In this document: piece by piece, positions 2,955 to 24,558 of the stretch | Layout: every line of letters starts with the position of its first letter | Position numbering within the stretch: position 1 is the stretch's first letter | From: Patescibacteria group bacterium | GTDB lineage: Bacteria; Patescibacteriota; Patescibacteriia; UBA2591; UBA6264 | Assembly (NCBI GenBank): GCA_028713575.1 | Contig: JAQTOB010000006.1 | Coordinates: forward strand, 1 to 32,000 | Direction: 5' to 3' | Length of the DNA: 32,000 nt | Notes under the pieces: model-generated | The model's input: the letters and a program-made list of their open reading frames with translations, nothing else | Told to the model about the DNA's origin: nothing | Databases searched by the model: none | Position numbers and translations under genes: made by a program

Positions 2955-3069
2955 ACAGTCAAGAAAAAAAGAATTAAAAGTGAACCTTAAAGGGTTATCG
3001 TTTAATTATATTTTTCTTAATCTTGAGGTTTAAAATTTTCTAATTTTAAAAACAATTTAAATTTATTTA

Positions 3070-3114
3070 AAAACGGGTTTTTGAGTTAGGGAATTTATCT
3101 TTGCCCGTTTTTTT
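3070..3114 (+). terminator. terminator/attenuator-like hairpin inside the rpsJ-rplC spacer
   Basis: AAAAACGGG (3070-3077 region) pairs with CCCGTTTTT (3104-3111) and is followed by a T-run. The loop is about 26 nt, so this is weak as an intrinsic terminator. Confidence 0.3.
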
Positions 3115-3205
3115 AGTTGCTCGTCCGAAATTTGTGAACTAAAAAGGAGAGGAACTCATAATTGTAGCAAAAATTTTTTCATTACGTTTATAAATTTTAA
3201 TAATT

Positions 3206-5854: not shown

Positions 5855-5943
5855 GTAGTCGGGCAATGGGGCAATCGGACAATCAGGGAACCAACCTCTA
5901 ATCCCCAATCCCCAGCGCCCAATTAACTAATTAATCAATTTAT

Positions 5944-6789: not shown

Positions 6790-6805
6790 AATAAATTTAA
6801 AAATT

Positions 6806-6927
6806 AAAATGACAGTTCAAAGTTCAAAGTTAACAATAAATAATAAATTTCCGCTTGGCGGAATACCTAAATTTTGCATTTTGTTTGTTGACATAAACAA
6901 GCATTTAGCATTTAGCATTTAGCGAAG
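6806..6927 (+). repeat. spacer element copy A (mini-ORF 6809-6922, hairpin 6849-6863, GCATTTA x3, AGCGAAG 6921-6927)
   Basis: Homologous to 7598-7705 and 10802-10872 by direct alignment. Contains an open 37-codon frame, MTVQSSKLTINNKFPLGGIPKFCILFVDINKHLAFSI. Confidence 0.85.
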
Positions 6928-6932
6928 TATTT

Positions 6933-7577
6933 ATGGGAAGAAAAGTAAATCCAAAAATTTTTCGTACGCCGTTAATTAGAGATTGGGATTCAAAATGGTT
7001 TGCCAAAAAGTATAAATTTAGATTTTTATTAAAAGAAGATTTACAAATTAGAAAATTTTTAGAAAAAAAATTAAAAAATTGCGGCGTAGCAAGAATTAAT
7101 ATTGAACGGATGGCTAACACGATTAAAGTTATTATTTATACAGCCAAACCGGGCTTGATTATTGGTCGGGGGGGGGTGGATATAGAAAAATTAAAAGAAG
7201 AGATAAAGAAGTTTTTATCGCAAGATATGATTTTAGAAGTAAATGTTTTGGAAGAAAAATCGCCGGCGATTTCTTCAATGGTTGTTTTAGAAGGAGCTAT
7301 TTCCGAGTTAGAAAAAAGAATTCCTTTTCGTCGGGTAATGAAAAAAATAATAAAGCAAGTTCAGGTCGGAGGCGCCAAGGGAGTTAAAATTATTGCTAGT
7401 GGTCGTTTAGGCGGAGCCGAGATTGCTCGTTCAGAAAAATTAATTTGGGGTAGTCTTCCATTACAAACATTAAGGGCGGAAATTGATTATGCCCGCGGGA
7501 CTGCTTTTACAATTTACGGAACCATTGGCGTAAAGATTTGGATTTATAAGGGTGAGAAATTTAATAAAGAAAATTAA
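6933..7577 (+). CDS. rpsC: 30S ribosomal protein S3
   Basis: MGRKVNPKIFR N-terminus and KH-domain GLIIGRGG. Confidence 0.98.
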   Translation: MGRKVNPKIFRTPLIRDWDSKWFAKKYKFRFLLKEDLQIRKFLEKKLKNCGVARINIERMANTIKVIIYTAKPGLIIGRGGVDIEKLKEEIKKFLSQDMILEVNVLEEKSPAISSMVVLEGAISELEKRIPFRRVMKKIIKQVQVGGAKGVKIIASGRLGGAEIARSEKLIWGSLPLQTLRAEIDYARGTAFTIYGTIGVKIWIYKGEKFNKEN

Positions 7578-7597
7578 CAATTTAAAAATCAAACATC

Positions 7598-7705
7598 AAA
7601 ATGACAATTAAAAATTTAAAATTAATAATAAATAATGAATTTTTGCGGAGTGGAATGCCTAAATTTTGCATTTTGCATTTTATACTTTGCATTTAATGAG
7701 CGAAG
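7598..7705 (+). repeat. spacer element copy B (mini-ORF 7601-7696, TTGCATTT words, AGCGAAG 7699-7705)
   Basis: About 80% identical to copy A over the first 75 nt from the ATG, with no indel. Open 31-codon frame MTIKNLKLIINNEFLRSGMPKFCILHFILCI. Confidence 0.85.
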
Positions 7706-7714
7706 CGAGCGCAT

Positions 7715-8605: not shown

Positions 8606-8634
8606 ATACTCAAGAATTTAGAGGCGAATAAAAT

Positions 8635-8651
8635 ACGAATTACAAATTCGT
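8635..8651 (+). promoter_or_regulatory. perfect 7-bp hairpin ACGAATT-ACA-AATTCGT within a cluster of CGAAT/ATTCG arms
   Basis: Read directly from the sequence. Additional ATTCGT copies follow at 8653-8658 and 8663-8668, and GCGAAT precedes at about 8623. Confidence 0.5.
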
Positions 8652-8697
8652 GATTCGTGGAAATTCGTTAAGAATTCATAAAAATTAATTTATTTAT

Positions 8698-10245: not shown

Positions 10246-10367
10246 GGGATGCAAGTTAAAACGTTTATTTGAATTAAAATAAATTTATAGATAAAATTTA
10301 ACTTTAATTGATGTTAAAATTAATGTTAAATTGTTTCAATTTTAAAATGTTAAAATGAATTTACATT

Positions 10368-10775: not shown

Positions 10776-10801
10776 TAAATTCAATCCGTCAACTAACGGA
10801 C

Positions 10802-10872
10802 AAAATTAAAATTAATGATAAATAATAAATTTCCGCTTGTCGGAATACCTAAATTTTGTATTTAGCAAAACA
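10802..10872 (+). repeat. spacer element copy C (truncated; mini-ORF 10815-10865, hairpin 10831-10845)
   Basis: The 45-nt core at 10818-10862 matches copy A 6836-6880 with 2 mismatches. The 3' end TATTTAGCAAAAC is a degraded GCATTTAGCGAAG. Confidence 0.85.
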
Positions 10873-10875
10873 TTT

Positions 10876-11424
10876 ATGTCAAGAATAGGCAAAAAACCAA
10901 TTTCTATTCCAGAAAAAACAGAAATAAAAATTGAAGACCAACAAATATCAGTTAGGGGACTAAGGGGAGAGTTAAAACAAACTTTGCCGAAATTTTTAAA
11001 GATAGAAATAAAAGAAAATCAATTGAATATTTTTGTTGAAAATCCAGAAGAAAAAAATCAACGTTCTTGTTGGGGTACGTTTAATGTTTTAATTTCCAAT
11101 ATGATTCATGGCGTTAACCAAGGTTTTGAAAAAAAATTGGAATTAGTCGGCGTTGGTTATCGGGCAAAAACAGACAATGACAAATTAATTCTTAATATTG
11201 GTTTTTCTCATCCTGTTGAATTTATTTTACCGGTCGGGATTAAAGCGATTGTTGAGCAAAATATTATTACAATTCAAGGCATTGATAAGCAATTAGTGGG
11301 AGAAATTGCGGCCCAAATTAGAAAGTTAAAAAAACCAGAACCTTATAAAGGGAAGGGAATAAAATATATTGATGAAATAATAAGAAGAAAATCAGGCAAA
11401 AAAGCCGCCACCAGTTCTTCTTAA
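10876..11424 (+). CDS. rplF: 50S ribosomal protein L6
   Basis: The canonical N-terminus MSRIGKKPI starts at ATG 10876. The ORF-track TTG at 10837 reads through repeat copy C and is unlikely to be the start. Confidence 0.95.
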   Translation: MSRIGKKPISIPEKTEIKIEDQQISVRGLRGELKQTLPKFLKIEIKENQLNIFVENPEEKNQRSCWGTFNVLISNMIHGVNQGFEKKLELVGVGYRAKTDNDKLILNIGFSHPVEFILPVGIKAIVEQNIITIQGIDKQLVGEIAAQIRKLKKPEPYKGKGIKYIDEIIRRKSGKKAATSSS

Positions 11425-14792: not shown

Positions 14793-14838
14793 ATTTTTTC
14801 TGAGATTACTTGGGATTTTAAAAGGTCAATTATTTATT

Positions 14839-15110
14839 CCGGGGCCTGGGGTCTTTCCGGGGCCTGGGGTCTGACCCCATAAACAAGCCCCCCAAAATCC
14901 GCATCAATAAAGGTTTATAGGGCGAAATTTTAAAAATGGCGTAATTTTGACCCCTTTTTACAAATTAATTTATTCTATTTATTCTGGGGTCTGACCCCAT
15001 AAACAAGCCCCCCAAAATCCGCACCAATAAAGGTTTATAGGGCGAAATTTTAAAAATGGTGTAATTTTGACCCCTTTTTACAAATAAATCCTTTTTATTC
15101 CGGGGTCTTC
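14839..15110. repeat. 120-bp tandem repeat, two full units (14864-14965 and 14984-15085) plus boundary fragments
   Basis: The units differ at 2 of 102 positions (14904 T/C, 14940 C/T). The boundary word TTATTC(C/T)GGGGTCT occurs at about 14834, 14978 and 15096. An 18-bp mini-duplication CCGGGGCCTGGGGTCT(TT/GA) lies at 14839-14874. Confidence 0.9.
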
Positions 15111-15157
15111 ACAAATTCCAAGCACCAAATTACAAACAATATCCAATGACCAAAATT

Positions 15158-15211
15158 CTAATGACCGAAATCCAAAATTTAAAATAAGAAAGTTTGAAAT
15201 TTTAAGCGAAG
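15158..15211 (+). repeat. degenerate copy D of the spacer element (5' ATGACC...AAAATTTAAAAT and 3' AAATTTTAAGCGAAG modules, middle missing)
   Basis: Hand alignment to copy B. AGCGAAG at 15205-15211 lies 8 nt before the map ATG. Confidence 0.55.
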
Positions 15212-15219
15212 CGATTTAT

Positions 15220-18212: not shown

Positions 18213-18378
18213 AAAATAAATTTAAAATGCAAAAATCAATCCCATTAGAAATTTTTATAATTGGTGTTTGTGCTATTATATTTTAGATAATTTTTATTAA
18301 AGGGATTTCTAACGGGATTAAAATGTAAAATTATTTAAAATAACCAATAATTAAGATACAAGATACAAACAAATTCCA

Positions 18379-18394
18379 TCCGCCAGCTGGCGGA
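18379..18394. terminator. perfect 16-bp palindrome TCCGCCAGCTGGCGGA between xerC-like stop and htpX start
   Basis: Read directly from the sequence. On the minus strand it follows the recombinase stop by about 110 nt. It has no strong U-tract, so terminator function is uncertain. Confidence 0.35.
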
Positions 18395-18505
18395 CAATAG
18401 TCAAACAATTTGGTTATTCGATTATTGGTCATTGATTATTGTTTGGTTATTGTTTCTTGTATTTTGTGTCTTTTTGATTGTTTTTTTTGTTTATGTTCCC
18501 ATGTT

Positions 18506-20793: not shown

Positions 20794-20815
20794 CGATACA
20801 AATTAACACGAGCCA

Positions 20816-20876
20816 AACATACGAATACAACAAAATGTATGTAAACAGCTACAAATATTCGCAGTATTCGTATGTT
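20816..20876 (+). promoter_or_regulatory. pnp leader stem-loop (13-bp perfect stem, 35-nt loop)
   Basis: AACATACGAATAC (20816-20828) is the exact reverse complement of GTATTCGTATGTT (20864-20876). It ends 37 nt before the pnp ATG. Confidence 0.55.
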
Positions 20877-20912
20877 ATTCGTAGATTAGCATTGCTTTAA
20901 GCGAAGTGTTTT

Positions 20913-24259: not shown

Positions 24260-24310
24260 ATTAACTAACTTAGATTAACCCTTAATCTCAATTTAAATCA
24301 ATTTAACCCA

Positions 24311-24437
24311 AATTAACCTAATTAATCTAATTTCTAATTGACCTAATAAAATCCCAATAATCAATAGCTGAATAACCAAGAATTTTTAGACATTGGGGTT
24401 TGGAAATTGGGCATTTATTAGAATAATTAGGTTAATT
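24311..24437. repeat. 21-bp inverted repeat (1 mismatch) flanking 85 bp
   Basis: AATTAACCTAATTAATCTAAT (24311-24331) versus ATTAGAATAATTAGGTTAATT (24417-24437). The inner 14 bp are perfectly complementary. Confidence 0.8.
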
Positions 24438-24558
24438 AGAATAATTTAGTCATTGATGGGGACGCACCTCATCAGTATGAAATGCCAAATGTCAAATCAA
24501 TGTTAAATGACTAAATGTCAAATAAAAGTTTGGATTTTGGAATTTATAGATTTAGAAT

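Follow-up and report, generated by a model that had tools for sequence, protein, structure and literature searches.

Three spacers of a patescibacterial ribosomal-protein operon probably carry members of a family of short interspersed mosaic repeats

The stretch of DNA analyzed here (the window; 32,000 nt, positions 1 to 32,000 of the forward strand of contig JAQTOB010000006.1, Patescibacteria assembly GCA_028713575.1) is 34% GC and carries tuf and the S10-spc-alpha ribosomal-protein genes. Three of its intercistronic spacers, rplV-rpsC (copy A), rpsC-rplP (copy B), and rpsH-rplF (copy C), are filled with related sequences. These are probably remodelled copies of an apparently undescribed Patescibacteria family of short interspersed mosaic palindromic repeats, of the kind of ERIC, RPE, and Correia elements and of REP/BIME. 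A preceding examination of the letters alone (the sequence-only reading) had described A and B and offered three roles for them: a REP-like selfish element, an upstream open reading frame (ORF) delivering ribosomes to the next gene, or an internal promoter module. It had favored selection on RNA or DNA over selection on the peptide. The selfish element is the best supported of the three, given about 20 contexts, both orientations, and variable occupancy; neither the upstream ORF as it was formulated nor the internal promoter found support.

Genes of the S10 operon normally abut, as that reading had assumed, and the same junctions measure 4–9 nt in relatives. In the window, 143 nt separate the end of rplV (6789) from the start of rpsC (6933), and 137 nt separate the end of rpsC (7577) from the start of rplP (7715). 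The proposed homology of the two spacers is borne out by an ungapped alignment of 75 nt, beginning at 6809 in A and 7601 in B, in which 61 positions are identical. Against 200 dinucleotide shuffles of B, the best 75-mer averaged 35.8 identities and never exceeded 42. Column identity between A and B in a MAFFT alignment is 80%. All modules that had been proposed (hairpin, core, heptads, and AGCGAAG) were found at the positions listed in Table 1, and the GC hairpin is, as had been described, intact in A and degraded in B. Copy C, which had been overlooked, shares ATAAATAATAAAT, the tip hairpin, and the core, with a different small 5′ hairpin in place of the AAAATGACA module. The AAAATGACA module of A is shared by B, by the closest relative, and by L039, L042, and L046 (three-digit L numbers denote fetched loci).

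Two species-representative Patescibacteria genomes, including a Portnoybacteria metagenome-assembled genome, contain GGAATRCCTAAATTTTGYATTT exactly, and the pattern one base shorter occurs in 32 metagenome loci. Five of the 32 are chance matches within genes and several are duplicates, leaving about 20 distinct elements of approximately 100–140 nt, in all of which the parts follow in identical order. First comes an A-rich arm in which words of about 7 nt (AAAATGT, AAAATGC, AAATATC) are iterated, nearly always with AAAATGACAAT; it is followed by a short GC hairpin of 5–8 bp that varies in sequence and keeps its pairing. The invariant GAATACCTAAATTTTGCATTT, (G)AATACCTAAATTTTGCATTT, comes third, and fourth a T-rich arm in which the heptads TGCATTT or TGATTTT/TGAATTT are iterated. 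Many copies close with a AGCGAAGCGCTT-type tail, often AGCGAAG, that runs up to the next gene's ATG. The family is present at no fewer than 17 junctions of conserved-operon genes in metagenomic Patescibacteria. Viral contigs held no exact match to the 18-mer core, and nothing relevant was found in the literature on intergenic repeats or MITEs (miniature inverted-repeat transposable elements) of the candidate phyla radiation (CPR)/Patescibacteria.

Flanking genes were identified by Pfam scans of ORFs or, for L13-S9, by reading the sequence. Every copy lies between two co-directional conserved-operon genes and fills the entire gap from stop to start. Copies in gene orientation occupy L22-S3 (window, the closest relative with its 88% identical S3, L042, L043, L046, and L004), S3-L16 (window and L046), S17-L14, S14-S8, S8-L6, L15-SecY, L13-S9, PilT-PilC, and MraY-MurD, as well as positions after TrmD and before YqeY. 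Those in the opposite orientation are found at PilB-PilT, DnaK-DnaJ, MreB-MreC, MraZ-RsmH, and DprA-TopA, and before HolB.

The hairpin is retained as a structure across the family. Stems observed include TTCCGC/GCGGAA, ATTCGCC/GGCGAAT, TCCGAC/GTCGGA, TCCGG/CCGGA, and GTCGC/GCGAC, and in 19 of 22 variants the hairpin, with its differing stems, beats shuffles on folding; it is lost in B and in the L042 copy. A covariance model of hairpin and core was built and 24 matches, 22 of them distinct, were aligned to it. In this model-fitted alignment, 90.6% of cells are paired (75% with shuffled partners), four of the seven hairpin pairs have changed on both sides, and the covariation score is 0.293 compared with 0.089 in shuffles, none of 500 of which reaches the observed value. 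Sliding the 3′ partners by 1–3 columns reduces the score to at most 0.025.

Beyond the tip, six full-length members (L013, L016, L009, L019, L034, and L012) form imperfect hairpins of 110–120 nt, built from an A-rich arm, a GC-clamped tip, and a T-rich arm, with z scores of −3.7 to −5.6, part of this signal being due to their A-left/T-right composition. The z scores of A, B, and C are −1.0, +0.05, and −0.5 (−1.6 to +0.05 when the copies of the closest relative are included), and whole-spacer RNA folds of the three do not rise above shuffles on either strand. The window copies, like those of the closest relative, lack the long hairpin fold because the right arm has been replaced: the window copies retain the left arm, the invariant 21-mer, and, except in B, the tip hairpin, followed by TGCATTT heptads and an AGCGAAG tail abutting the ATG. 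Strand asymmetry in fold energy arising from G-U pairs gave mixed indications of a functional strand. Only two tRNAs in the window reach the Rfam gathering score, and the best E value between 6700 and 7800 is 0.95.

The operon was compared with that of relatives fetched via their S3 homologs. The closest of these (L015 and L007) has an S3 that is 88% identical and genes of 73–80% nucleotide identity; four-fold degenerate sites are saturated with respect to the window (39–52% identity). It carries four near-identical copies, at L22-S3, S17-L14, S14-S8, and S8-L6, and its S3-L16 spacer is the 9-nt TTTTGCAAT, where the window has 137 nt. L038 (S3 84% identical) has 4 nt at both L22-S3 and S8-L6, where the window has 143 and 101 nt; counting L039 as well, S8-L6 measures 4–5 nt. 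L039 (S3 80%) further has 9 nt at S3-L16, an unrelated 93-nt element at L22-S3, and a short family member at L15-SecY. Different elements occupy both L22-S3 and S3-L16 in L040 and L041, and family copies occupy both in L046 (S3 86%).

Copies of the closest relative are 83–92% alike among themselves, versus 70% to the orthologous window copy. Left-arm variants also swap junctions: GTyCAAA.. lies at L22-S3 in the window, and ATTAAAAAT.. lies at S3-L16 in the window and at L22-S3 in the relative. Variable occupancy together with this within-genome likeness is in line with gain, loss, replacement, or conversion, and not with quiet vertical inheritance of a fixed regulatory site. The comparison shows the element apparently being gained, lost, replaced, or homogenized faster than close relatives diverge. 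Dispersed copies, as in MITE-like elements, are found both in the window (three) and in the relative (four), at sites filled in one genome but vacant in a relative. Neighboring genes can read into the element. The S17 gene of the closest relative has lost its own stop and continues into the left arm for 21 codons, as far as the ATAAATAATAAAT module, which in A contains stop codons in two frames. L15 of L039 is 184 residues long compared with 150 in the window, and the left arm lies within its 3′ end, an apparent read-in. Gene fusions into small bacterial repeats are known (PMC3184786).

Several observations weigh against interpretation as mobile repeats. Comparison of filled with empty junctions revealed no clear target-site duplication and no conserved termini; the flanks are low-complexity, AT-rich sequence, and outer arms differ between copies. 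No transposase or autonomous partner with the same ends was seen in approximately 300 kb of fetched loci. Unlike in classical MITEs, the conserved part is central and not terminal. An exact 21-mer across lineages, and 93% identity over 83–85 nt between window and closest relative despite saturated synonymous sites, would fit purifying selection for a host function equally well. A profile of hairpin and core finds only three copies, all in this operon, in 50.7 kb of the source genome (the window and flanks L044 and L045). All 14 copies in the ribosomal-protein operons of seven genomes are in gene orientation, and nearly all copies in these operons retain some sense ORF that ends 10–18 nt before the next start or overlaps it.

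Among known systems, the family resembles ERIC/IRU, Correia (NEMIS), and RPE elements, MITE-like imperfect palindromes of 100–150 nt, in its size and in the long imperfect hairpin of full-length members. Also shared are copies scattered in both orientations through transcribed intergenic regions, junctions that are filled or empty between genomes, and occasional extension of a neighboring ORF into the element (S17 and, apparently, L15). In contrast to these elements, the family has no conserved termini and no TA or other target duplication was seen. Its conserved part is a central 21-mer beside a hairpin of variable sequence, its arms are iterated 7-nt words, there is no sequence similarity, and the host is a Patescibacterium.

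In REP, the stem sequence is conserved and has a GTAG head. In the present family the stem varies (CGC/GCG, GCC/GGC, CGAC/GTCG, CCGG/CCGG), and it is ATTC..GAAT and the 3′ flank that are conserved; no fixed-head GC palindrome is found. What the family has in common with REP/BIME is an intercistronic position in operons in both orientations, a small GC-rich stem-loop, and a mosaic, modular build. The first descriptions of REP presented it as a regulatory element lying between cistrons of operons (Higgins 1982 and Stern 1988, cited in PMC3184786). Intercistronic position in operons, small ORFs, and filled or empty sites likewise recall MIRU. The units of MIRU are tandem, as is familiar from MIRU-VNTR (variable-number tandem repeat) typing, whereas the family consists of single units in both orientations in which only the 7-nt heptads vary in number. 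MIRU lie between genes of polycistronic operons, are co-transcribed, contain small ORFs, and occupy sites that are filled or empty between species (PMC3184786, citing Supply 1997). Their ORFs overlap the stop and start of the neighbors, in contrast to the mini-ORFs of the window, which begin 19–23 nt after the upstream stop and end 10–18 nt before the ATG; overlap is seen only in L004, where the TGA of the ORF meets the rpsC ATG as ATGA. The occurrence of TIGR arrays in CPR prompted a comparison with them. Such arrays are tandem, with two alternating repeats of 8–12 nt and 9-nt spacers, next to a tas gene (PMC12045711). The family forms no such array and consists of single dispersed units in a ribosomal-protein operon.

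If A, B, and C are repeats of this kind, they would be co-transcribed with the operon. Their insertion may be tolerated because initiation here would depend neither on Shine-Dalgarno sequences nor on tight coupling; it seems to need no more than a weakly structured, AU-rich stretch upstream of the ATG. Any effect on expression would be exerted by the small GC hairpin within an AU-rich single strand, acting as an exonuclease barrier or endonuclease site by analogy with REP and ERIC; ERIC can create an RNase E cleavage site in transcripts, leading to decay of upstream mRNA (PMC3184786). Spread may proceed by transposition in trans or by recombination or gene conversion between the word-iterated arms, both of which are possible.

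A distinctly less probable explanation is that the elements are functional intercistronic RNA cassettes, in which hairpin and 21-mer are bound by a host factor or nuclease and set segmental mRNA stability, processing, or partial termination, mobility being secondary. As part of the same explanation, a downstream gene without a Shine-Dalgarno sequence would have its initiation region in the U-rich arm together with the GCGAAGC mini-hairpin. Such cassettes would be consistent with the exactness of the 21-mer at junctions of different lineages (at least 17), with the covarying hairpin, and with conservation of the element far above that of synonymous sites. Unequal expression of neighbors is plausible at dnaK-dnaJ, mreB-mreC, and pilB-pilT, and AGCGAAG occurs five times on the plus strand of the window and never on the minus strand, four of the five before start codons. 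Four opposite-orientation members contain TTGTCA-N17-TACA(T/G)T on the strand on which the genes are read, and in the three whose downstream start is known the next ATG follows 11–13 nt later; these members are homologous and therefore count as one observation. However, close relatives make do with 4–9 nt at the same junctions, where unrelated elements can also sit, both orientations occur, and B and the L042 copy persist without the hairpin. The hairpin is weak (−4 to −10 kcal/mol) with no sense-strand U-tract directly after it, the region shows no excess of promoter-like hexamers (55, against 45.6 expected from shuffles), which are also inconsistent across subfamilies, and there is no Rfam match.

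The internal promoter suggested by the sequence-only reading foundered on the lack of any −35/−10 pair consistent across members. As a sigma-70 promoter, ATGACA-N17 is followed by AACAAT, AATAAT, AACGAT, TATTCG, or CATTCC in different members, and ATGACA-N17-(A)ATAAT fits the window subfamily only. TTGCAT-N17 lacks a −10 hexamer, TTGACA in A has no usable −10 at 16–18 nt, and the GG/GC spacing for a sigma-54 promoter is 14 instead of 11. The succession of A-rich tract, GC hairpin, and T-rich tract is also that of intrinsic (bidirectional) terminators, but the sense U-run of the element starts 8 nt after a weak stem and the conserved 21-mer is not a terminator feature. On the sense strand, the stem of A (−7.3 kcal/mol) is followed by ACCUAAAUUUU with no U-tract, and B has no stem; a terminator scan found only the antisense strand of A and C to be terminator-like. 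The position of the element inside the S10-spc operon makes termination unlikely.

The tail AGCGAAG deserves separate description. AGCGAAG(C/T)G, which contains the GCGAAGC mini-hairpin, occurs at 6921, 7699, 15205, 20900, and 26950 on the plus strand of the window, and four of these sites lie 5–9 nt upstream of starts (rpsC, rplP, map, and pnp). In relatives, this motif also ends spacers of unrelated families (L039 6108 and 15534; L040 9978; L041 11464; L042 13591; L043 7423 and 9989). None of the fetched loci contains a 16S rRNA sequence whose 3′ end might pair with AGCGAAG. The motif occupies the Shine-Dalgarno position in a genome without Shine-Dalgarno sequences.

It is interesting to speculate, at long odds, that the elements, perhaps together with other similar spacer families, constitute a lineage-specific intercistronic expression cassette of Shine-Dalgarno-less Patescibacteria. 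A translated relay ORF, or a factor that binds the invariant 21-mer, would pass ribosomes or processed mRNA ends on to the following gene, and spread of the cassette would result from its ability to function at any site it reaches. Its layout would read A-rich arm, GC hairpin, U-rich arm, GCGAAGC mini-hairpin, AUG.

The mini-ORFs of A and B exist as they had been reported, with 37 and 31 residues and stops 10 and 18 nt before the next ATG. It is improbable that they serve as a translated relay, in which ribosomes coming off rplV or rpsC would initiate again at the mini-ORF, read through hairpin and core, and stop 10–18 nt before the next ATG; translational coupling would be maintained over a 140-nt spacer, the act of translation mattering and not the peptide. 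Eight copies of the "INNK..PKFCIL" type from five genomes are open in frame 0 with an ATG, the other two forward frames holding 1–5 stops each, and crude neutral simulations under a star tree place this at approximately 1e-4 to 4e-4. The frame survives a 3-nt indel and downstream hairpin inserts (copy A and L046), the stops fall just before the next ATG or, in L004, on it, and shorter ORFs in the same frame at L043 S14-S8 and in C end 10–11 nt before the ATG. The simulations, however, overstate independence and omit disrupted copies. Their value of 1e-4, significant at first sight, is discounted here because the copies are related, because the disrupted C and L043 L22-S3 were left out, and because antisense ORFs are equally long.

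The frame from ATG through KFCIL is open in one subfamily only, comprising A, B, the four copies of the closest relative, L039, L042, and the two of L046. Other subfamilies read ATGACAATGTAA, stop after three codons, have the core in another frame, or have no ATG. At L22-S3 of L043 the frame is broken, the sequence there showing ATG changed to ACG and CAA to an in-frame TAA. C is without the 5′ half and the AAAATGACA start, and its in-frame ORF, from 10816, has just 16 codons. Differences are spread evenly over codon positions (5/5/4 between A and B; 24/30/25 across the subfamily), antisense ORFs cover the family spacers no less well than sense ORFs (0.61 versus 0.47), and the composition of the heptad arm rules out stops in all frames. 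A conserved start, a conserved frame, and a coding substitution pattern, as expected of an upstream ORF or leader peptide, are thus not found.

Delivery of ribosomes to cistrons lacking a Shine-Dalgarno sequence, as the sequence-only reading had put it, is further undermined by the rest of the genome. A Shine-Dalgarno-like motif (GGAG, GAGG, AGGA, or GGTG within 20 nt upstream of the start) precedes only 3 of 41 genes in the window; nearly all genes are without one, and orthologs of rpsC, rplP, and rplF are expressed from 4–9 nt after the preceding gene. The mini-ORF is most likely a by-product of stop-poor, low-complexity sequence. Most starts in the window are preceded by ATTT or TTTAT. A JGI annotation calls a 33-residue antisense gene in copy A (6817-6918, minus strand), which is probably spurious.

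Neutral local duplication of one spacer in this operon would fit the presence of A, B, and C within 4 kb of one another in a single operon, but it can practically be dismissed. The sequence-only reading had counted a lack of further copies and of orthologous conservation among the findings that would favor it, and neither is lacking; the element occurs in many other Patescibacteria, at non-orthologous junctions and in both orientations, and the hairpin covaries.

Patescibacteria (CPR) have tiny, streamlined genomes, yet their most conserved operon hosts several short-repeat families and GIY-YIG genes. The repeats bear on how insertions are tolerated between genes whose translation is normally coupled, a tolerance that probably depends on Shine-Dalgarno-free initiation, and on the use of ribosomal-protein blocks as phylogenetic markers and binning scaffolds. 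For annotation, the spacers yield spurious small ORFs on both strands. If the 21-mer has a host function, it would offer a new way into the post-transcriptional control of a phylum without cultivated members.

Table 1. Positions of the three copies and their parts in the window, and of GIY-YIG genes in fetched loci
Feature	Position	Strand	Remarks
Copy A	6790-6932	+	whole rplV-rpsC spacer; covariance model R1 66 bits at 6842-6883
A-rich left arm of A	6806-6848	+	AAAATGACA module 6806-6814; ATAAATAATAAAT 6836-6848
GC hairpin of A, TTCCGC-TTG-GCGGAA (TTCCGCTTGGCGGAA)	6849-6863	+	−7.3 kcal/mol; 0.3% of shuffles as good
Invariant core of A, GGAATACCTAAATTTTGCATTT	6860-6881	+	
Small hairpin insert specific to A, TTGTTTGTTGACATAAACAAGC	6881-6902	+	not in B, C, or the relative's copies
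Right end of A	6900-6927	+	three AGCATTT heptads, then AGCGAAG (6921-6927); tail 5 nt before rpsC ATG
Mini-ORF A	6809-6922	+	37 aa; judged incidental
Copy B	7578-7714	+	whole rpsC-rplP spacer; covariance model 38.9 bits
Degraded hairpin of B	7641-7655	+	
Core of B	7652-7673	+	
TGCATTT heptads of B	7667-7694	+	
AGCGAAG of B	7699-7705	+	
Mini-ORF B	7601-7696	+	31 aa; judged incidental
Copy C	10776-10876	+	fills rpsH-rplF spacer; covariance model 58.4 bits
Own 5′ hairpin of C, CCGTCAACTAACGG	10786-10799		
Hairpin of C, TTCCG-CTTGT-CGGAA	10831-10845		
Core of C	10842-10863		
GIY-YIG gene, L040	2450-2745		L23-L2
GIY-YIG gene, L047	8867-9161		S19-L22
GIY-YIG gene, L047	13229-13560		L5-S14

The family is not alone in these operons. 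At least five other spacer families, of 50–250 nt, are found at operon junctions of this clade and share a build of word-iterated arm, hairpin, complementary arm, and short tail abutting the ATG. A family with ends ACCCAGCCCTCTA...TAGAGGGCTGGGTGCTCGAAAATTAAT encloses a GIY-YIG gene at L23-L2 in L040 and at S19-L22 in L047, and the second GIY-YIG gene of L047, at L5-S14, lies between CCCGCACCT and AGGTGCGGG. The inverted ends of these genes (ACCCAGCCCTCTA..TAGAGGGCTGGGT and CCCGCACCT..AGGTGCGGG) also flank ORF-less spacers elsewhere. By analogy, the GIY-YIG versions and the ORF-less spacers resemble an autonomous element with its miniature derivatives. The other spacer families and the GIY-YIG inserts in the same operons provide context that supports the selfish-element interpretation of A, B, and C.

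In the window itself, other word-iterated hairpin elements occupy the spacers at 5855-5943, 8606-8697, 10246-10367, 18213-18505, 20794-20912, and 24260-24558. These families (GGGCAAT..CCCCAAT, ACGAAT..ATTCGT, and ATGTTAAAATG) recur at other junctions in L038–L043 and L047. The adk-map spacer (14793-15219) contains a unit of approximately 120 nt that is tandemly duplicated (14864-15099, 94% identical), with GGGGTCTGACCCC palindromes, and an inverted match of 60 nt and 75% identity relates 15110-15169 to 18409-18468.

The rpsJ-rplC (S10-L3) spacer, 2955-3205 in the window, is 180–380 nt long and conserved in relatives (AAAAGTGAACC..GGTTATCGTTT..CTTAATCTTGAGGTT). It ends in a canonical terminator, a strong GC hairpin followed by a T-run, and has no Rfam match. 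This spacer is a candidate for a regulatory leader, or an attenuator, lying between S10 and L3.

In the Portnoybacteria locus L002, the TrmD ORF (26-709) contains the low-complexity inserts FKVQSSKLQSKSKKL and SLKSDFKDSPKSDF, which resemble translated word-iterated repeat DNA, and an N-terminal fragment of rpiB follows the element.

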